A stretch of DNA of 64,000 bases from an uncultured bacterium. GTDB lineage: Bacteria > Fidelibacterota > UBA2242. Location of the stretch: assembly GCA_964576275.1 (NCBI GenBank), contig CAZNUN010000003.1, positions 136,730 through 200,729 of the forward strand. The letters run 5' to 3'. The notes under the pieces were generated by a model that searched no databases, was not told where the DNA came from, and saw only the letters and a program-made list of their open reading frames with translations. Position 1 is the first letter of the stretch, and every line of letters begins with the position of its first letter. Positions 1 through 23,444 of the stretch are shown piece by piece. The position numbers were made by a program, and so were the translations under genes.

Positions 1-1439
1 ATGGAGACGGCGACACAGAGGAGGATTTGGTCTGGGATGATACTCAAGAAGGCCCCCATCCCGGTTTCTTGTATGATGAAAATAATTACTGGTGGGTAAT
101 GGGTGACGACGAGGGCTACCGGGATCAGGAATCCTGGACGAATACACTCAAGGGGGATTTGGTCAACCAGATAAATCATAACCATCTTATCAAGACCGGA
201 TTTGAATTCAAATATCATCGCACCGCCGTCGAAAATGTCGCCTGGACTCTGGGTTATGGCACCTTTCGGAAAGACATCTGGGACCAGAATACTATTGACC
301 TCGGACTGTATGCCCAGGATAAAATCGAATTCCAGGGTATCATCGCCCTAATCGGTCTGCGTTATGACTATTTCGATCCGGCCGGCGGCGACGGTGGAAT
401 CACTTATCCGGCAGACTATAATAATCCTTATTCGACTCTGGATAGCAATGGCCTGCCGATCCTGATTGACGCCGCAGAACCGGCTGTCAAGTCACAGATC
501 AGTCCGCGCATTGCGATCTCACATCCGATCACAGATCGTGATGTCATTCACTTTTCTTACGGTCATTATTTCCAGCGTCCGGATGCCTATTTCCTCTATC
601 GTAATATGTATTTGCAGGATTTTACGAAGGTTGGTAACTATGTCGGTAATCCGAATATCGATCCGGAAAAAACGGTCGCCTACGAGATTGGTGTCGAGCA
701 CCTTTTCAGCGATAATGTCAAGGGATCGATCACCGGTTATTACAAAGACGTGACCAATCTGATGAACTGGTATAAGTACATCGGGGAAAACCTTCAGGGC
801 ATCGAGCTCAATGTCTATGGCAACGCTGACTATGGCAATATAAAAGGGTTGGAATTTGCCCTGACGAAAAGACTCGGCCGATACTGGGGCGGTTCGGTTA
901 ATTATACTTTTTCGGTTGCTAAAGGACGAGCCTCGACTTATAGCAGCGGGGCCGGGGGGTTCACAGATTCACGCAAACTGAATTATCTGAGTTACGATCA
1001 AACCCATACGATCAATGCTAACCTGACCCTGTGCACTCCAAACGAACCGGTTTTGGGTTTGCGATTTGGGAGTTATAAACCATTTGCAAACTGGCGGTCC
1101 AATTTTCAGTTCAAATATGGCAGCGGATTACCGTATTCCTCCTATGGCACTGGAAAAATCAATGACAAGCGTTTACCAGCAACATTCAATACAGATCTGA
1201 GATTAAGTAAGACGATTAACATTGCCAAGACAGATTTGAACCTTTTCCTGGATGTGTTCAACCTGTTTAACAGCCTCAATGTCGATTATCTCGGAAGCAC
1301 TTATCTTTACGAAACTGTCGAATCTCATGCAGTTGCGGCTGTGCGCGATGAAACAGCGCTGGGCGGTAGTGTTATATATAATCCTCAGGTTTACAGTGAC
1401 CGGCGGCAATATCGTTTCGGTGTGGAAGTGCAATTCTAA
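1..1439 (+). CDS. TonB-dependent receptor, C-terminal beta-barrel portion (5'-partial, runs off window start)
   Basis: The ORF is open back to nt 3. It has an alternating amphipathic beta-strand pattern, 'FDVFNLFN'-type barrel motifs and a C-terminal 'RFGVEVQF' ending in Phe, which is typical of a TBDR/OMP barrel terminus. Confidence 0.6.
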   Translation, partial: GDGDTEEDLVWDDTQEGPHPGFLYDENNYWWVMGDDEGYRDQESWTNTLKGDLVNQINHNHLIKTGFEFKYHRTAVENVAWTLGYGTFRKDIWDQNTIDLGLYAQDKIEFQGIIALIGLRYDYFDPAGGDGGITYPADYNNPYSTLDSNGLPILIDAAEPAVKSQISPRIAISHPITDRDVIHFSYGHYFQRPDAYFLYRNMYLQDFTKVGNYVGNPNIDPEKTVAYEIGVEHLFSDNVKGSITGYYKDVTNLMNWYKYIGENLQGIELNVYGNADYGNIKGLEFALTKRLGRYWGGSVNYTFSVAKGRASTYSSGAGGFTDSRKLNYLSYDQTHTINANLTLCTPNEPVLGLRFGSYKPFANWRSNFQFKYGSGLPYSSYGTGKINDKRLPATFNTDLRLSKTINIAKTDLNLFLDVFNLFNSLNVDYLGSTYLYETVESHAVAAVRDETALGGSVIYNPQVYSDRRQYRFGVEVQF

Positions 1440-1460
1440 GTGGGTGACGGAGGTTATTTA

Positions 1461-3512
1461 ATGAGACAGCAAGGTAAAAATATAGTTAAGATCTTATTAG
1501 TCGGTCTGATTATTTTCAATTTGGCGATGAGTGCCGACGGTTTACGTAAGCCGGATAAATTACCCCGACTTTCAATGGCGACCACCAGCCCGATCGTGGA
1601 TAATAATTTTAAATGGCATAAAGTCGGCAATATCTGGAATCGTTGCACAAATTTTAGTTATATGGGTGATGACTCATATACAGGTCGTACACCATCGGGA
1701 GATTATCCCGGCGGTTCCGGGAATTCTTATCTTTACCGCGGAACGATCTGGCTGTCGGCTTTTGTGGATGGCACTTTTCACTCAACGCAGGGTGATGACC
1801 ATGAGTTTTCGGCGCTGGATTCGGTGCATGTGGATACCAGTGCGACTGCTCGTTCGGATGAGGATACCTATACCAGATACTATGATGTTTCGGCCCCGCT
1901 GGCGTCGGCGCATTTCCCACTGGGTCTGGAGGTTCAGGAGCGCACTTATGCCTGGTCGGTCAGCTATGCGGCGGATTTCATCATTTACGAGTACACCATC
2001 AAGAATGTCGGGATTGACACCGATGGAGACGAAATTCCCGACACTCAGCGAGGTCTGAAGGACTTTTACTTTACGATCCGCTTTGACGCGGATGTCTCCA
2101 AATTGTTGCAGTGGGATGCTGAATCTAAATTTTGCAATATTGACGATCATGCTATGGCAAACAGTCAATGGAATTGGATAGAAAAATTTGCCGATCCGAG
2201 CGATCCAAACGATAATAAAAGTTGCATGGCTGGCCGCGATCACGATTTGACTGCCGCGGATGCCGACAGCCATATGATTATCATGTTCGACGGTGACAAT
2301 CCCGGTTATGCGGCCGATAATGGTTTATCTAACGATTTTGGTAATCCCGGGGCTGATAGTGTTTTGCAAACCCCTGGTTTTATCGGTATTAAAATGTTGA
2401 AAAGCGTTCCGGAACTGAAACCGAGTTCTTTTCATGTTTGCCAGATATATAATGATCCAGCTACAGACGCCGAAACCTGGTCGCGCATGATCAGTAGCCC
2501 GATTTTCGAAGATATATTTACCCACCCTACGACTGGTTTACCCTACGCCTATGATTTTCGCGGGATTCTGACATTTGGTCCACTGGATACTCTGGCACCA
2601 GGCGATTCAGTGGTCGTGACGACCGCTTTGGGCATTGGTTGTGATTTTGACAGCGGCGGAGTATATAGCTTGGTGAAGCTGGTTAAGATCATGGATGTGG
2701 CGCAGTATCTCGTTGACAATGATTATTCTCTTAATCCTGATGAAGTATGTCCGCCGGCGCCGAACGTTACCCTTGAGCAAAATGTTATCACCGATGCAGA
2801 ATTGGGTTATCAAGTCACGAACGGAGTGAAAATACTCTGGGACACGACTTCCGCTTCGCATGAAAATTTTAAGGAATACAAGGTTTCCAAAGGCCAGAAA
2901 AACACCACCGGTTCGATCGACTGGTCCATTATGGCAACCTATACCGATACTGTCGGCAGCACTTCCTGGCCGCCGCCGAAGAGTGAAGATGGAACTCACT
3001 ATCAGCTGGTTGACACTGATGTGATAAAAGGGTTGGTGTACTACTATTCAGTTCAGGCTTTCACAAATAATATTACCGAACCAATTCCATTTGGGGTTTT
3101 ACATACCAACATCATTGATGCCAAGAGTTGTAAACTGATCGCACCAGCTAATCCGGTTGCCCTAACGACTCTGAAAAATGTCAAGGTTGTCCCCAATCCA
3201 TACATCGGCAGCGCCAGGTGGAATAATCCTACTCCCAGCGACGGCAGTCCGTGGCAACATCGCGTGCAGTTTACCAATCTGCCGTCTGACGCTAAGATTA
3301 AAATATTTACGCTTGATGGAGATTATGTAGCTGAAATCAAAGCCAATGAAACGGTTGTAGCCGGCGAGGAGGATGCTCCTAATGCCGCCAGTGTCGCCGA
3401 GTGGGATCTGATGACCCGCAATAATCAGGAAGCCGCTCCCGGAATTTACATGTACGTGGTTCAATCGCCGACTCTGGGTGAAAAAGTCGGCAAATTCGTA
3501 ATCGTTCGTTAA
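1461..3512 (+). CDS. large secreted hypothetical protein with C-terminal T9SS-type sorting domain (putative T9SS cargo)
   Basis: GGAGGT RBS 5 nt before ATG 1461. The N-terminus is a hydrophobic signal peptide (KILLVGLIIFNLAMSA). The C-terminal roughly 100 aa ('KIKIFTLDGDYV...WDLMTRNNQEAAPGIYMYVVQS...KFVIVR') resemble T9SS/Por C-terminal domains. The body has no recognisable catalytic motif. Confidence 0.5.
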   Translation: MRQQGKNIVKILLVGLIIFNLAMSADGLRKPDKLPRLSMATTSPIVDNNFKWHKVGNIWNRCTNFSYMGDDSYTGRTPSGDYPGGSGNSYLYRGTIWLSAFVDGTFHSTQGDDHEFSALDSVHVDTSATARSDEDTYTRYYDVSAPLASAHFPLGLEVQERTYAWSVSYAADFIIYEYTIKNVGIDTDGDEIPDTQRGLKDFYFTIRFDADVSKLLQWDAESKFCNIDDHAMANSQWNWIEKFADPSDPNDNKSCMAGRDHDLTAADADSHMIIMFDGDNPGYAADNGLSNDFGNPGADSVLQTPGFIGIKMLKSVPELKPSSFHVCQIYNDPATDAETWSRMISSPIFEDIFTHPTTGLPYAYDFRGILTFGPLDTLAPGDSVVVTTALGIGCDFDSGGVYSLVKLVKIMDVAQYLVDNDYSLNPDEVCPPAPNVTLEQNVITDAELGYQVTNGVKILWDTTSASHENFKEYKVSKGQKNTTGSIDWSIMATYTDTVGSTSWPPPKSEDGTHYQLVDTDVIKGLVYYYSVQAFTNNITEPIPFGVLHTNIIDAKSCKLIAPANPVALTTLKNVKVVPNPYIGSARWNNPTPSDGSPWQHRVQFTNLPSDAKIKIFTLDGDYVAEIKANETVVAGEEDAPNAASVAEWDLMTRNNQEAAPGIYMYVVQSPTLGEKVGKFVIVR

Positions 3513-19212: not shown

Positions 19213-21045
19213 ATGTTGCGGAGGGCGAGATTCTATGTTTTATATGGCATTTATTGGTTATTCATTTTTGTCATTATCCGGCTGCTTTTTCTGGTTTATA
19301 ATTTTCCCGAGTCCGCCAGTCTTGGGCCAATCGTCTGGTTAAAAACCTTCTGGCATGGTGCAGCTTTGGACATCTCAGCGGTGGGTTACATTTTGATCTT
19401 GCCATCACTTTTAATAATCGCGACGGCCTTTTACAGAAATGAAATTGTTTATCATTTTACCAGGATCTATACATTATTGCTCTTGGTAATAATCTGTTAC
19501 GCGGCTGTGGCGGATATGGTGATCTATGGTTACTGGGGATTTCGCTTCGATATTTCGGCGCTCTGGTATTTAAAGACACCCGATGAGGCCATGGCGTCGG
19601 TCGGCTGGCTGGAGATTCTCGGGCCTTCGGCAATTGGCACTGCGTTATGGTTGAGCTTTTGGTGGTTGTACCGGCGATTTGTGGCGGATGCTGCCCGACA
19701 TTGGGAACGTAGTTTATGGCAAGCGCCGCTAACCTTCAGCCTGATAATCCTGCTCTCGATCATCCCTATCCGCGGGGGGCTTGGGCTGGCGCCGAATAAT
19801 CTGGGACGAGTTTATTTTCACTCAAATATGTTTGCCAATCACGCTGCTATTAATCTGCCCTGGAATATTCTCTATTCGATAACTCAGAGAAAGAATCTGA
19901 ACCGCGAATATCGCTTCATGGCGGACGAAACGGCTCAGCAAAAGTTCGATTCATTATCAACCTCGGTTGGCGCGGTTAAACCGGTTTTAAGGATAAAAAG
20001 ACCAAATATCCTTATAATAATTCTGGAAAGTTTTACCGCGAAAGTGGTAGCTCCGGTCGGCGGTTTACCGGACGTGACCCCCAATCTGAATCAATTGTCC
20101 CGGGAAGGATTGTTGTTCACTAATTTTTACGCCTCCGGAGATCGCACCGATAAATGTATTGTGCCCATTCTAAGTGGTTATCCGGCACTGCCGCGCGGTC
20201 AGGTTATCAAGATGCACCGTAAGCTGGAAAGTTTACCGAATATTCTAAACGACCTGAGGAATGCTGATTATCAGACGGCCTTTTATTATGGAGGTGATAT
20301 TAATTTTGCCAATCTGAAATCGTATCTCCTGATGGGAAAAGTCGGCCGGCTGGTCACGATGCAGAATTTTCCCGACTCGACCTATAATGCCAAGTGGGGA
20401 GTTCACGATCATATTATGTTTGAGCGCTTGCTAACCGATCTGCGCTCGGCGGCAGAGCCGTTTTTCTATGTGTTCCTGACTCTAAGCAGTCATGAGCCTT
20501 TTGATGTGCCCGGACCGCCGGTTTGCGACACCAGCACAAAAGATGGCAAATTCATCAATTCGGTTTTCTATACGGATAAATGCCTGGGTGATTTTATCAG
20601 AGTCTCGAGACATGAGAAGTGGTGGAACAACACGCTGGTGGTTTTATTAGCCGATCACGGCGTAAGGATGATAGGGCGCTCGCCGAATTACGCTCCTGAA
20701 AAATTTAAAATCCCTATGTTATGGCTGGGAGGTGCACTCAACCTAAAGGGAGAGCAAATAGAGGCATTTGCCTCTCAGAACGATCTGGCAATCATGCTGC
20801 TGCATCAGCTCGGATTGGATGCCAGGGCTTATCCATTTTCTAAGGATGTTTTGTCTGCCGGAATCTTTCCTTATGCATTCTATACCTTCAATGACGGATT
20901 TGGCTTTCTGACCGAAAAATCGCAGGCGGTCTATAATAATCATAGTCAGAGCTTTATCCTGCTTGAACCGAAAGAAAGCCGCGAGGTGGCAGATTGGGGA
21001 AAGGCCTATTTACAGATTCTTTCTCAAGATTTTCTGCGGCGTTGA
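19213..21045 (+). CDS. LTA-synthase/sulfatase-family membrane protein (alkaline-phosphatase superfamily)
   Basis: GGAGGA RBS. The N-terminal half has 5 TM helices. The C-terminal sulfatase-like domain has 'ILIIILESFTAK' and 'SGDRTDKCIVPILSGYP'. Confidence 0.65.
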   Translation: MLRRARFYVLYGIYWLFIFVIIRLLFLVYNFPESASLGPIVWLKTFWHGAALDISAVGYILILPSLLIIATAFYRNEIVYHFTRIYTLLLLVIICYAAVADMVIYGYWGFRFDISALWYLKTPDEAMASVGWLEILGPSAIGTALWLSFWWLYRRFVADAARHWERSLWQAPLTFSLIILLSIIPIRGGLGLAPNNLGRVYFHSNMFANHAAINLPWNILYSITQRKNLNREYRFMADETAQQKFDSLSTSVGAVKPVLRIKRPNILIIILESFTAKVVAPVGGLPDVTPNLNQLSREGLLFTNFYASGDRTDKCIVPILSGYPALPRGQVIKMHRKLESLPNILNDLRNADYQTAFYYGGDINFANLKSYLLMGKVGRLVTMQNFPDSTYNAKWGVHDHIMFERLLTDLRSAAEPFFYVFLTLSSHEPFDVPGPPVCDTSTKDGKFINSVFYTDKCLGDFIRVSRHEKWWNNTLVVLLADHGVRMIGRSPNYAPEKFKIPMLWLGGALNLKGEQIEAFASQNDLAIMLLHQLGLDARAYPFSKDVLSAGIFPYAFYTFNDGFGFLTEKSQAVYNNHSQSFILLEPKESREVADWGKAYLQILSQDFLRR

Positions 21046-21160
21046 GTGGGTAAATTCAGGTTGAAAGTTTAAGATTACAGATTCATGATAAATTGCCGCT
21101 GACAGACGATAAATAAAAATAATTGAAAATCTTTTTTATCTGTCCAAATTTGCGGAGAGA

Positions 21161-21215
21161 CCGGGATTTCCCGCCGTTGGCGGGACTAATCCCGCCGCAG
21201 GCGGGGCGAACCCGG
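21161..21215. repeat. nested double-hairpin (cruciform-like) GC-rich structure
   Basis: An outer stem CCGGG pairs with CCCGG and encloses two hairpins, TCCCGCC-GTT-GGCGGGA (21169-21185) and TCCCGCC-GCA-GGCGGGG (21190-21206). The structure overlaps the last roughly 10 codons of the GIY-YIG ORF. Confidence 0.6.
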
Positions 21216-21455
21216 GGGATTGATTAATTTTCTGAATGCTTCACCGCCTTTATATGACTTAATTTCCAGTTCGCGTTTTTTGGCTTGCTGGATTGTGTTG
21301 AATTCTTCGCGATAGACGATTCGGAGCGGAATTCGATGTTTCAGGGATCTTGTTTTTCCGGAATTATGCTGGCGGAGACGTTTATCCATATCTGAAGTGT
21401 AACCGATGTAATAACCGCCATCTTTCTCACTCTGAAGAATATAGACCCAGTACAT
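21186..21455 (-). CDS. GIY-YIG nuclease family protein (UPF0213-like)
   Basis: 'MYWVYILQSEKDGGYYIGYTSDMDKRLRQHNSG' is a classic GIY-(10)-YIG motif followed by the R..H..G core. Length 89 aa. The gene starts 4 nt from the tRNA 3' end. Confidence 0.7.
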   Translation of the reverse strand: MYWVYILQSEKDGGYYIGYTSDMDKRLRQHNSGKTRSLKHRIPLRIVYREEFNTIQQAKKRELEIKSYKGGEAFRKLINPPGSPRLRRD

Positions 21456-21458
21456 TTG

Positions 21459-21548
21459 CGGAGAGACAGGGATTCGAACCCTGGGTACCGCTTTTGGCAG
21501 TACAACTGCTTAGCAGGCAGCTGCCTTCAGCCGCTCGGCCATCTCTCC
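21459..21548 (-). tRNA. tRNA-Ser (anticodon GCT)
   Basis: The minus-strand read is GGAGAGATGGCCGAGCGGCTGAAGGCAGCTGCCTGCTAAGCAGT...CCAGGGTTCGAATCCCTGTCTCTCCG. It has a 7-bp acceptor stem, anticodon loop CTGCTAA, a long variable arm, and a GTTCGAATC T-loop. No CCA is encoded. Confidence 0.85.
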
Positions 21549-21629
21549 AGTTAAAATCAGGTCTATTAAAAAACCGGGTGAATTTATAGAATTAATTCTT
21601 TAAATTCAAATTACAATTTGGAGGTGTAT

Positions 21630-23444
21630 ATGAGTTCTTGGGTTATTTCACACAGATTTTTTAATAGCGTCAAGCAATTTGCGGATAAACCAGCCCTGTT
21701 GTCCAAAGTGGCCGGGAAATATCGCCCCGTGCTGTACCGTGAATTGGGCGATATTGTCAGAAATATCGCTCTGGCACTTGATTCCTGGGGAATTCGGAAG
21801 GGCGACCGGGTTTCCATTTTATCTGAGAACCGGGAAGAATGGATCATGTCTGACATGGCCAATCAGTCCATTGGAGCCATCTCGGTGCCGATCTATCCGA
21901 CCTTGGTGATCAATCAGGTTGAAGAATTACTGAAACATTCCGAGCCGCGGGTAATATTCGTATCCAATGGACTACTGCTAAAAAAGGCATTGGCGACCGG
22001 CTATCAGTTTGAACATATTGTAATCTATAAGGCCGATTCGGATCTACCGCAAGCTATGGCGTTGGCGGAAATGTGCGCCGTCGGGCAGAAAATTGCCGAA
22101 AGCAATCCGGAAGCATTTGAGTCTCTCCTCAATGCAGTAGAGCCCGAAGATATCGCCTGTATAAATTATACCTCAGGCACAACCGGTGTTCCGAAGGGCG
22201 TATTGTTGACCCATAAAAATTTCGTTGTTGACGTTGATAACAGTGTCGGCATTATGCAAATGGTACCCGAAGATTGTTTCCTGTCTTTTCTGCCATTAAG
22301 CCATGTGCTGGAACGTATGGGAGGATATTACGTCCCGATGTTGGTTGGAGCCACAATCGGATTCGCCGAAAGCATCGAGAAAGTGGTGGAAAATATGGCC
22401 GAGGTTCAGCCGACGATCGTAGTCAGCGCCCCGCGCCTGTTCGAAAAAATTTATGCTACGGTCATGTCAGGCATCGAATCCGGCTCCGCAATAAAAAAGA
22501 AAATCTTTTTCTGGGCCTTGAAAGCCGGAAAAGCCCGTATGTATTCGTATATCAACAAAACTCCGCTGACTGGCTGGCAAAAAAGAAAAATCAAGATTGC
22601 CGACAAGCTAGTTTTTAGCAAACTGCAGAATAAAACCGGCGGAAGAATCACCAGATTTGTTTCCGGCGGAGCGCCGCTATCGAAGGAAATTGCTGAATTT
22701 CTGTTTTCGGCCGGATTGCCGGTTCTGGAGGGCTATGGCCTGACCGAAACCAGTCCGGTGATCACCTTAAACGGTCCCGGCAAGGTACGGCTTGGCTCGG
22801 TGGGCGTCGCCATTCCGGAAACGGAATTTAAGATCGCCGAAGATAATGAAATCCTAGTGCGTGGCCCGCAAGTTATGAAAGGGTACTACAAGAATGAATC
22901 CGCCACCAGCGAAGTGATTGATGCCGACGGCTTTTTACATACTGGCGACATCGGTTATTTTGACGCCGACGGATTTCTGTTCATTACCGACCGTAAGAAA
23001 AATATCCTGATCACGGCCGGTGGAAAAAATGTAGCCCCGCAGCCCATCGAAGATGCCATTAAACTCAGTCCATATATCACGGAAGCCATTTTATTCGGCG
23101 ACCGGCGCAGCTATGTAGTCGCCCTCGTGACCCTGGACCAGAATAACGTAAAAAAATGGGCTGAAACCCAACATTTGCCATTTGATTCCTACTCCGAGTT
23201 TGTCAAGCGGCCGGAGCTGTATGCTCTGATTGAAGCCGAAATTGAAAGACAAACCGCGCACTTTTCCCGCTTCGAAAAAGTTAAAAAATTCCGGATCATT
23301 CCGAATGATTTCACTATAGATACCGGCGAACTTACTCCCTCGCTGAAAGTCAGGAAAAAAGTGGTCGCAGAAAAGTACGCCGATCTGATTGATGAAATGT
23401 ATCTGGAACAAAGTCCCGGACAAACAACCGATTCTCTCGCATAA
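21630..23444 (+). CDS. long-chain-fatty-acid--CoA ligase (AMP-dependent synthetase)
   Basis: GGAGG 5 nt before ATG 21630. AMP-binding motif 'INYTSGTTGVPKGVLLTH'. 'GYGLTE' and 'TGDIGYFDADGFLFITDRKK' motifs. Confidence 0.8.
   Translation: MSSWVISHRFFNSVKQFADKPALLSKVAGKYRPVLYRELGDIVRNIALALDSWGIRKGDRVSILSENREEWIMSDMANQSIGAISVPIYPTLVINQVEELLKHSEPRVIFVSNGLLLKKALATGYQFEHIVIYKADSDLPQAMALAEMCAVGQKIAESNPEAFESLLNAVEPEDIACINYTSGTTGVPKGVLLTHKNFVVDVDNSVGIMQMVPEDCFLSFLPLSHVLERMGGYYVPMLVGATIGFAESIEKVVENMAEVQPTIVVSAPRLFEKIYATVMSGIESGSAIKKKIFFWALKAGKARMYSYINKTPLTGWQKRKIKIADKLVFSKLQNKTGGRITRFVSGGAPLSKEIAEFLFSAGLPVLEGYGLTETSPVITLNGPGKVRLGSVGVAIPETEFKIAEDNEILVRGPQVMKGYYKNESATSEVIDADGFLHTGDIGYFDADGFLFITDRKKNILITAGGKNVAPQPIEDAIKLSPYITEAILFGDRRSYVVALVTLDQNNVKKWAETQHLPFDSYSEFVKRPELYALIEAEIERQTAHFSRFEKVKKFRIIPNDFTIDTGELTPSLKVRKKVVAEKYADLIDEMYLEQSPGQTTDSLA

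Follow-up and report, generated by a model that had tools for sequence, protein, structure and literature searches.

Stand-alone bacterial proteins of the Slx1/UPF0213 type have been represented by structures since 2005 and have no assigned function; a phylogenomic survey from 2006 considered the prokaryotic stand-alone Slx1-like proteins to be vertically inherited, with a presumed role in repair, and placed the selfish GIY-YIG members in another lineage, and linkage to tRNA genes was not reported in it (PMC1564403). Among the free-standing homing endonuclease genes of T-even phages, SegB is a GIY-YIG endonuclease that cuts inside tRNA genes at the motif RAWTSGAAC, and it drives a nuclease- and recombination-dependent tandem amplification of the tRNA-plus-segB segment; truncation of the SegB C-terminus abolishes its toxicity (PMC13096335). 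In this study we have analysed a 64-kb stretch of DNA from an uncultured bacterium (contig CAZNUN010000003.1; hereafter the window, whose positions are used for all coordinates) which harbours, beside a tRNA-Ser(GCT) gene, a cassette read on the minus strand and made up of a stand-alone GIY-YIG nuclease, intact and about 80 amino acids (aa) in size, and a hairpin-bearing pseudo-copy of the adjacent tRNA (hereafter pseudo-tRNA). On balance, we consider it probable that we are dealing with a minimal selfish cassette that has nested beside a tRNA gene, owes its spread and amplification to recombination between homologous tRNA sequences, and uses the hairpin as a cis-acting site.

The functional tRNA-Ser(GCT) at this locus (21459–21548, minus strand) was identified both by ARAGORN (21458–21548) and by a match to the Rfam tRNA family (RF00005; 21459–21548, 58.1 bits, E = 1.6e-11), and near-identical or identical tRNAs stand alone in relatives with empty sites (L088–L092). 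The strand and the 3′ end (21459) given in the original prediction are thereby borne out. The tRNA does not encode CCA; its 3′ end (...CTCTCCG) is followed by CAA and then by the ATG of the nuclease gene, leaving 3 nucleotides (nt) between the discriminator base and the start codon. The final 16 nt of the tRNA and the 5 nt beyond it (ATTTGCGGAGAGACAGGGATT, 21454–21474) are repeated, as had been noticed earlier, at 21148–21168 (ATTTGCGGAGAGACCGGGATT), with 20 of the 21 positions identical. When up to 3 mismatches were allowed, a 19-nt core of this repeat was found at these 2 sites alone in the 64 kb, where 0.04 would be expected by chance, and 2 or more sites were obtained in 0 of 100 shuffles; hence, the tRNA-derived repeat is not a chance occurrence. 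The repeat is longer than the 21 bp initially proposed. Past a 38-nt pair of hairpins it continues, with CGAACCCGGGG (21207–21217) matching CGAACCCTGGG (21475–21485) at 10 of 11 positions, and the full repeat comprises 21 nt plus 11 nt (30 of 32 identical), split by the hairpin pair.

Because this homology continues beyond the hairpins, the distal copy can be recognized as a 32-nt piece of T-arm and acceptor 3′ strand with a split T-loop; in other words, the pseudo-tRNA of the window is cut down to a T-arm, whose T-loop carries two hairpins, and the acceptor 3′ strand. On the tRNA strand it reads CCCCGGGTTCG-(CCCCGCCTGCGGCGGGA-TTAG-TCCCGCCAACGGCGGGA)-AATCCCGGTCTCTCCGCAAAT, where the 38-nt insert (in parentheses) sits between TTCG and AATCC (G57/A58), and its T-stem is self-consistent (CCGGG/CCCGG), whereas the stem of the functional tRNA is CAGGG/CCCTG. 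The proximal repeat copy (21454–21485, minus strand) extends from the T-stem 5′ strand of the functional tRNA, through its T-loop and T-stem 3′ strand, to its acceptor 3′ strand and the CAAAT that follows. The distal copy is in two parts. One, the T-stem 5′ strand plus TTCG (21207–21217, minus strand), pairs with 21160–21164 and overlaps the 3′ end of the nuclease open reading frame (ORF); the other (21148–21168, minus strand) contains the 3′ half of the T-loop, the 3′ strands of the T-stem and of the acceptor stem, and CAAAT, and it passes directly into the native 3′ flank of the tRNA. With both copies included, the whole cassette, as delimited by the repeat search and by the empty sites, extends over 21148–21485 (minus strand), and the extra DNA relative to an empty site amounts to 306 bp (the repeat period, 21148 to 21454).

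The relatives used for the comparison of occupied and empty sites were sampled via the neighbouring AMP-binding gene, and the sampling was thus blind to the nuclease. This approach yielded occupied sites (L086/L087 and L093) and empty sites (L088, L089, L090/L091, L092, and L094/L095). The empty sites share the order AMP-binding gene, tRNA-Ser(GCT), and Rce1/sulfatase genes, and they contain the same tRNA, with the nuclease gene, the hairpin and the repeat all absent; the same synteny is seen at the occupied sites of the window, L086, L093, L006, and L032. In the occupied locus L086, the functional tRNA runs directly into the nuclease ATG, and the native 3′ flank of the empty sites (...GTTAATCTTGTCTAAAAT...) adjoins the distal tRNA fragment, from which it follows that the distal piece is continuous with the original tRNA end. 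Occupancy is patchy with respect to the similarity of the neighbouring protein, as the occupied L086 is closest to the empty L091 (81%) and the neighbouring protein of the occupied L093 is 90% identical to that of the empty L094. The identity of the nuclease is also incongruent with that of its neighbours (58% vs. 83% in L009, and 78% vs. 68% in L006). These results show that the cassette is an insertion at the tRNA with presence/absence polymorphism, in agreement with the insertion that had been postulated from the window alone. L093 and L094 were rejected as a clean occupied/empty pair, since in L094/L095 (1790–2320), the empty relatives nearest to L093, approximately 490 nt of unrelated, uncharacterized filler lies between the Rce1-like gene and the tRNA, in the place of the cassette. 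A Logan contig with an identical cassette (L004) was likewise not used, as two sequences were probably fused inside the tRNA during its assembly; in its first 360 nt (1–360) the 5′ part of the tRNA differs, and a tRNA-Ser(TGA) stands upstream in the place of the AMP-binding gene.

The nuclease ORF (21186–21455, minus strand, 89 aa) scores 54.5 bits (E = 1.5e-14) with the Pfam family GIY-YIG (PF01541), for which the cut-off is 22.6. Its core domain comprises residues 1–79 (approximately 21219–21455), and the final 10 or so codons (NPPGSPRLRRD) are the distal T-arm and the first hairpin read in frame, with the TAG of the inter-hairpin linker as the stop. In the PDB, the best sequence matches are the UPF0213 proteins BH0048 (1ZG2, E = 2.3e-10) and EF2693 (1YWL, E = 5e-8), followed by SLX1. 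Foldseek, applied to an AlphaFold2 model (predicted local distance difference test score of 84.7; residues 83–89 below 50), likewise ranks 1ZG2 first, then SLX1 (6SEH, 4XM5, and 7CQ2) and HIGLE, with I-TevI and UvrC much weaker. By sequence and by fold, the protein is thus a member of the Slx1/UPF0213 branch of the GIY-YIG superfamily, as its initial description as UPF0213-like had implied, and its 7–10 C-terminal residues are predicted to be disordered. Residues Y5, Y16, G18, R26, H30, and E62 are invariant in 26 homologues, and catalysis is predicted from these residues. For pairs involving the window nuclease, non-synonymous divergence (dN) is 0.17–0.32 with synonymous divergence (dS) saturated, which points to purifying selection on the ORF. 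The intact ORF, the invariant catalytic residues and these values show that the element is not decayed, as had been suggested as a possibility earlier. A 100% identical protein is found at an identical locus on 11 metagenome contigs (5 places listed). No DNA-binding domain is present beyond the catalytic core of about 80 aa. Searches of phage, plasmid and IMG/VR viral-contig collections with the nuclease protein gave no homologues apart from a few distant matches, so the cassette is not evidently carried by phage or plasmid vectors. The N-terminal extensions of some homologues (P0011, P0013, P0017, and P0049; e.g., ...REFESLPLRLRK-YFVY) are not real protein; they represent read-through of the upstream tRNA by the gene caller, i.e., the tRNA T-arm and acceptor strand in translation.

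The cores of the two hairpins (CCCGCCGTTGGCGGG at 21170–21184 and CCCGCCGCAGGCGGG at 21191–21205) are the sole exact matches to CCCGCC-N3-GGCGGG in the window. Hairpin 1 (21190–21206; CCCCGCC-TGC-GGCGGGA on the minus strand) was found by pattern search and folding, and its motif is conserved across phyla; hairpin 2 (21169–21185; TCCCGCC-AAC-GGCGGGA on the minus strand) was found by pattern search and has the compensatory form CCCGCT...AGCGGG in relatives. The linker between them (21186–21189, minus strand) is TTAG, which supplies the ORF stop, and in L006 it is TTTG and the ORF is 3 codons longer. The hairpin region has a fold z-score of −3.35. In 10 related sequences, a structure made of the T-stem and two side-by-side hairpins has 92.6% of its cells paired, the innermost pair of each hairpin covaries independently, and compensatory changes keep both the hairpins and the T-stem of the pseudo-tRNA paired; the alternative nested fold leaves pair 17–42 unpaired in 5 of the 10. 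These few, related sequences provide modest evidence that two side-by-side stems enclosed by the T-stem fit better than the nested fold. Thus, of the nested double hairpin originally placed just inside the distal repeat, the two hairpins are real, but they appear to stand side by side and they lie within the repeat. Across loci, the consensus hairpin is YCCCGCC-N3(-4)-GGCGGGR, in which Watson-Crick pairing is kept via changes of C-G to T-A and the loops are mostly 3 nt long and of arbitrary sequence. In some pseudo-tRNAs the T-loop carries a second type of insert unrelated to the CCCGCC hairpin (L093 2190–2290, which equals L102 590–670; L050 1800–1830; and the pseudo-tRNA-Pro T-loops of L060/L078 and L072). 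These inserts include hairpins of the type GGGAGTCC...GGACTCCC as well as ACTTCTCTCAGCGAAGCT and TCCCGAATATTCGGAA, and they reflect either further hairpin families or selection for breakage of the T-loop by any means.

A scan of 185,579 species-representative genomes with two peptide patterns led to 378 confirmed relatives of the nuclease, of which the best 79 were examined. Their hosts belong to the Marinimicrobia, Bacteroidota, Patescibacteria (Candidate Phyla Radiation, CPR), Omnitrophota, Ignavibacteria, Lentisphaeria, Acidobacteria, and other groups. A tRNA on the same strand abuts the nuclease ORF in 74 of the 79 loci and a tRNA on the opposite strand in none, and 4 of the 5 loci without an abutting tRNA are cut by a contig end; this arrangement accounts for the occurrence of small GIY-YIG genes beside tRNAs, as had been surmised from the single locus. 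Within the Ser(GCT) clade, the ATG lies 2–5 nt past the tRNA 3′ end. At most loci, the ORF is located between two copies of one tRNA, one of them normal and the other a pseudo-tRNA in which the same hairpin interrupts or takes the place of the D-arm, the anticodon arm, the T-loop/T-arm, or more than one of them (clear examples are L040, L047, L029, L027, L070, and L074). Many phyla show this design of tRNA, nuclease and pseudo-tRNA, and the tRNA genes concerned are those for Ser, Pro, Thr, Tyr, His, Lys, Glu, and Gly. The hairpin motif is present in 59 of the 79 loci, and up to 200 nt from the gene its density is 1.94 per kb, vs. 0.17 per kb (about 11-fold lower) in the flanks. The nuclease clades track tRNA families and host groups (viz. 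all three Pro isoacceptors in Bacteroidota, and Ser(GCT)/Ser(TGA) in Marinimicrobia), which fits a targeting via sequence homology. By our own tally, the pseudo-tRNA of loci with D-arm hairpins is downstream of the gene in 15 and upstream in 4. In all those loci where the pseudo-tRNA precedes the gene, mostly from CPR and Omnitrophota genomes, the hairpins lie 5–30 nt before the ATG.

Several loci contain the cassette in tandem. In L036, a 1.65-Mb Oxford Nanopore contig of a Chitinophagaceae metagenome-assembled genome (MAG), a normal tRNA-Pro is followed by at least 6 identical tandem units of GIY-YIG gene plus pseudo-tRNA-Pro with a period of 358 (1020–3242), and similar arrays occur in L048, L015, L072, and L067. 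Within the clade of the window, L006, L007, and L032 retain a vestigial second GIY-YIG start after the pseudo-tRNA. Just upstream of the normal tRNA of L036 there is a 5′ fragment (acceptor strand, hairpin and 8 nt), and L048 has two such fragments; ARAGORN labels the hairpin-substituted copies of L036 as ordinary tRNA-Pro genes. In the Pro-type loci (L040, L015, L036, L042, L084, and others), the ORF ends inside the 5′ acceptor strand of the pseudo-tRNA, and its stop is the conserved U8-A9-G10 (TAG) of the tRNA, giving rise to recurrent C-termini of GV, GK, or GR before the stop. In L105 (279–560), at a tRNA-Ser(CGA), an upstream pseudo-tRNA 5′ fragment with other hairpins is accompanied by a solo T-arm copy with twin hairpins from which the ORF is absent and by a full cassette with three T-loop hairpins, which suggests repeated events at one site. 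The host labels of certain MAG contigs, viz. L029 (Heimdallarchaeota), L084 (Bifidobacteriaceae), and L026/L047/L067/L077/L083 (Gammaproteobacteria), look doubtful because their tRNA and GIY-YIG sequences resemble the CPR/Bacteroidota versions; these loci could be due to binning contamination or to real cross-phylum transfer.

Of the described systems, free-standing homing endonuclease genes such as segB would appear to come closest to the cassette in the way they work. As in SegB and other free-standing homing genes of T-even phages, a GIY-YIG nuclease gene is embedded among tRNA genes, and there is presence/absence polymorphism at one locus among related genomes. By our own reading, the reverse complement of the SegB motif appears to match the tRNA T-loop consensus. 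The arrays of L036 and L048 look like an outcome of the same kind as SegB amplification (PMC13096335), and the distal T-loop of the window is interrupted exactly within the SegB motif. The conserved hairpin and the hairpin-substituted pseudo-copy are not mentioned in the consulted sections of the SegB report. The cassette also differs from SegB in being chromosomal in bacteria, with no more than a few distant matches in the phage and viral collections. SegB is about 220 aa long, with DNA-binding modules, and belongs to the I-TevI/UvrC+ lineage, whereas the cassette protein, which is of the Slx1/UPF0213 lineage, consists of a bare catalytic domain of 80 aa with no added DNA-binding domain. Furthermore, a simple disruption of the site is not evident, given that an intact functional tRNA persists in the occupied locus alongside the interrupted distal T-loop; for this reason, self-homing by cleavage of the tRNA-Ser 3′ region, one of the possibilities raised in the original prediction, poses a logical problem.

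The best matches of the protein in both sequence and structure are the UPF0213 stand-alone proteins, with which it shares the minimal single domain, but unlike the family as it has been described (PMC1564403), the subfamily considered here (characterized by the motif KSYKGGxAF) is nested at tRNAs, polymorphic in its presence, arrayed, and tied to one particular hairpin. The cassette resembles the integrase islands and prophages found at tRNA 3′ ends in that the functional tRNA is kept and a displaced 3′ duplicate forms a direct repeat. However, it has no integrase, it is 0.3 kb long rather than several kb, its duplicate is split by conserved hairpins, and variants exist in the D-arm, in the anticodon arm and on the upstream side, as do tandem arrays. 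Hence, the absence of a recombinase, the size and the hairpins inside the repeat indicate that it is not an integrase island. The attL/attR geometry that was first attributed to it is correct insofar as tRNA-derived direct repeats bound the insert, but the signature is that of a duplicated, hairpin-marked and often arrayed tRNA and not one of integrase type. The association of a small nuclease gene with short GC-rich hairpins resembling cis-acting sites is also reminiscent of repetitive extragenic palindromes with their associated transposases (REP/RAYT) and of IS200/IS605. These systems employ HUH transposases with covalent intermediates, whereas a GIY-YIG enzyme can only cut, and the hairpins of the cassette are located inside tRNA copies and are not dispersed (2 in 64 kb, both in the cassette); the cassette is therefore not REP/RAYT-like. 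The likeness to type III toxin-antitoxin systems (ToxIN-like) is one of architecture only, i.e., a nuclease beside a structured repeat, with no homology to ToxN. In the full-text literature, with most subscription journals outside the scope of this search, we have come across no account of minimal GIY-YIG cassettes linked to tRNAs or of hairpin-substituted tRNA copies, and there is a substantial chance that the cassette represents a kind of selfish nuclease gene deserving its own class.

Under the explanation that we favour, viz. a selfish cassette nested at the tRNA gene, entry and amplification would proceed by homologous recombination between the pseudo-tRNA of the cassette and the tRNA gene already in place, with an excised circle integrating in the Campbell manner and with unequal exchange. 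The nuclease would stimulate recombination by nicking or cutting its own hairpin or the branched DNA extruded by the hairpin-armoured cloverleaf, and such breaks or nicks would promote recombination between pseudo-tRNA and tRNA, giving rise to arrays, to excised circles and to integration at tRNA genes of similar sequence. Slx1 relatives cut branched DNA, and a cloverleaf with its arms replaced by very stable GC mini-hairpins would be a plausible extruded junction, in line with the structure specificity of these relatives. The hairpin is the best candidate for the cis-acting site because it is the sole nucleotide feature common to cassettes across tRNAs and phyla, and the host would pay little since its functional tRNA is preserved. 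The nuclease gene would be expressed by read-through from the tRNA promoter, and the position of the ATG, 3 nt past the tRNA 3′ end, suggests that the mRNA ends are set by tRNA processing. A scan of the locus returned no terminator and promoter-like sites at background level only. An AT-rich imperfect hairpin (arms 76% complementary) at 21108–21144, just past the distal tRNA fragment, may be the native terminator of the tRNA, though the terminator scan made no call there. In 20500–22200, an Rfam search at a permissive E-value recovered the tRNA and a chance plastid match on its antisense strand, and the hairpins matched no family.

A number of points weigh against this explanation. The activity of the nuclease, its role in mobility and the nature of its substrate (RNA or DNA, in the form of a hairpin or of a duplex palindrome) are all matters that we infer. 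The benefit to the element is not self-evident, because a break in its own pseudo-tRNA would normally make the pseudo-tRNA the recipient of information, and the hairpin would tend to be erased. The Campbell model predicts that a pseudo-tRNA with a T-loop hairpin lies upstream of the gene; L049 fits this prediction, as do the loci with D-arm hairpins in respect of the side predicted for them, but in the T-loop clade of the window the pseudo-tRNA is downstream, which would be explicable only by a 5′ truncation of the pseudo-tRNA. An 80-aa protein would offer little surface for the recognition of a 7-bp half-site, and a recognizable hairpin motif is absent from 20 of the 79 loci. The loci sampled include no occupied/empty pair close enough (more than 95% identity) for the exact junction to be placed. 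Lastly, the Marinimicrobia element may have been largely vertically inherited and then lost, and not repeatedly gained.

The most serious competing explanation, which we nevertheless regard as unlikely, is that the hairpin-bearing pseudo-tRNA acts as RNA, in which case the element would still be selfish but the hairpin would not be a DNA cleavage site; it could bring about translational autoregulation of a toxic nuclease, protect the mRNA end after RNase P/Z processing, or, more boldly, combine a protein-binding handle with a tRNA-sequence guide. Such a function would be in keeping with the hairpins being always on the sense transcript at an ORF boundary (in the window they overlap the stop codon), with their location shortly before the ATG where the pseudo-tRNA is upstream, with the preservation of cloverleaf arm positions by the replacements, with the covariation of hairpin and T-stem pairing, and with the ATG placed immediately after the tRNA in the Ser(GCT) clade. 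Characterized GIY-YIG enzymes, however, act on DNA, and we know of none that acts on anything else; the variable, mostly 3-nt loops are of the DNA mini-hairpin or interrupted-palindrome type and are unlike stable RNA tetraloops, and the hairpins have no match in Rfam. At the outer and inner stem positions of the sense strand, C·A mismatches outnumber the G·U-compatible (G·T) ones by 27 to 9, a difference that would at most argue weakly in the same direction, given the small sample of non-independent sequences, uncorrected for shared ancestry. It is decidedly unlikely, in our estimation, that the cassette is an addiction or defence module, in which a toxic nuclease restrained by a hairpin or pseudo-tRNA decoy (RNA or DNA), as in type III toxin-antitoxin systems, would persist at tRNA loci by post-segregational killing or would protect the tRNA supply. 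The constant linkage of nuclease and structured repeat, even unit by unit in the arrays, and the patchy distribution among relatives agree with this idea, as does the counter-defence role of SegB-driven tRNA amplification in phages (PMC13096335). It nevertheless leaves unexplained why the partner should be a copy of the neighbouring tRNA, it finds no support in the phage, plasmid and viral collections, with their few distant matches, and the neighbours of the cassette in the window are housekeeping genes. These neighbours encode PBP1, ThyX, LepA, an Rce1-like protein, a sulfatase, an AMP-binding enzyme, TamB, an Omp85-family protein, and ClpB.

The cassette gene might also belong to the host, serve DNA repair or tRNA metabolism, and merely happen to be co-transcribed with tRNAs, with the distal piece as debris of an unrelated tRNA duplication. 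The classification of stand-alone Slx1-like proteins in the 2006 survey and a fusion to a TrmH-like tRNA methyltransferase known from it (PMC1564403) accord with such a role, as do the purifying selection on the protein and the presence of the Marinimicrobia gene at the same tRNA in relatives down to 51% identity. We deem this very unlikely, since equally close relatives have empty sites, the gene forms tandem arrays, the same hairpin recurs in tRNA copies of eight isotypes across phyla, and nuclease and neighbour identities are incongruent. The possibility that the locus is a decayed integrase island, with attL/attR in the tRNA 3′ end and the nuclease left behind as cargo, is close to refuted. 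The att core of tRNA-targeting integrases is typically situated in the part of the tRNA from the T-loop to the 3′ end, which is the part spanned by the direct repeat. Against this, the window has no integrase or transposase within about 10 kb on either side of the cassette, in accordance with the absence noted originally, and no tyrosine or serine recombinase or integrase was seen in the related loci examined (about 3 kb each, including L001–L006); the element measures only 306 bp, its compact design (start codon 2–5 nt from the tRNA, hairpins inside the repeat, arrays) recurs in 79 genomes, and the upstream-side and D-arm variants do not fit att geometry.

We also advance, as a tentative proposal, that the cassettes constitute an unrecognized class of prokaryotic selfish element formed by a bare Slx1-like GIY-YIG nuclease and a hairpin-armoured pseudo-tRNA. 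In such an element, the pseudo-tRNA would provide the homology arm, or landing pad, by which any tRNA gene of similar sequence could be reached, the conserved hairpin would be the specific substrate or handle of the nuclease (either a mimic of a DNA cloverleaf or junction, or an RNA guide plus handle), and re-targeting would be achieved by simple recombination with a new tRNA. If this proposal is correct, it would provide a biological role for a part of the long-uncharacterized UPF0213 family, whose stand-alone members have been thought of as repair factors. The cassettes also explain some oddities of genome annotation, viz. small GIY-YIG genes beside tRNAs, arm-replaced tRNA duplicates that are called as genes, and contig breaks at these places, and a nuclease of 80 aa with a defined 17-nt hairpin would offer a simple system for work on the specificity of minimal nucleases. 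The cassettes would represent a chromosomal counterpart to SegB-driven tRNA amplification and would bear on the evolution of tRNA gene copy number. At least one large UPF0213 subfamily behaves like a tRNA-nested selfish cassette.

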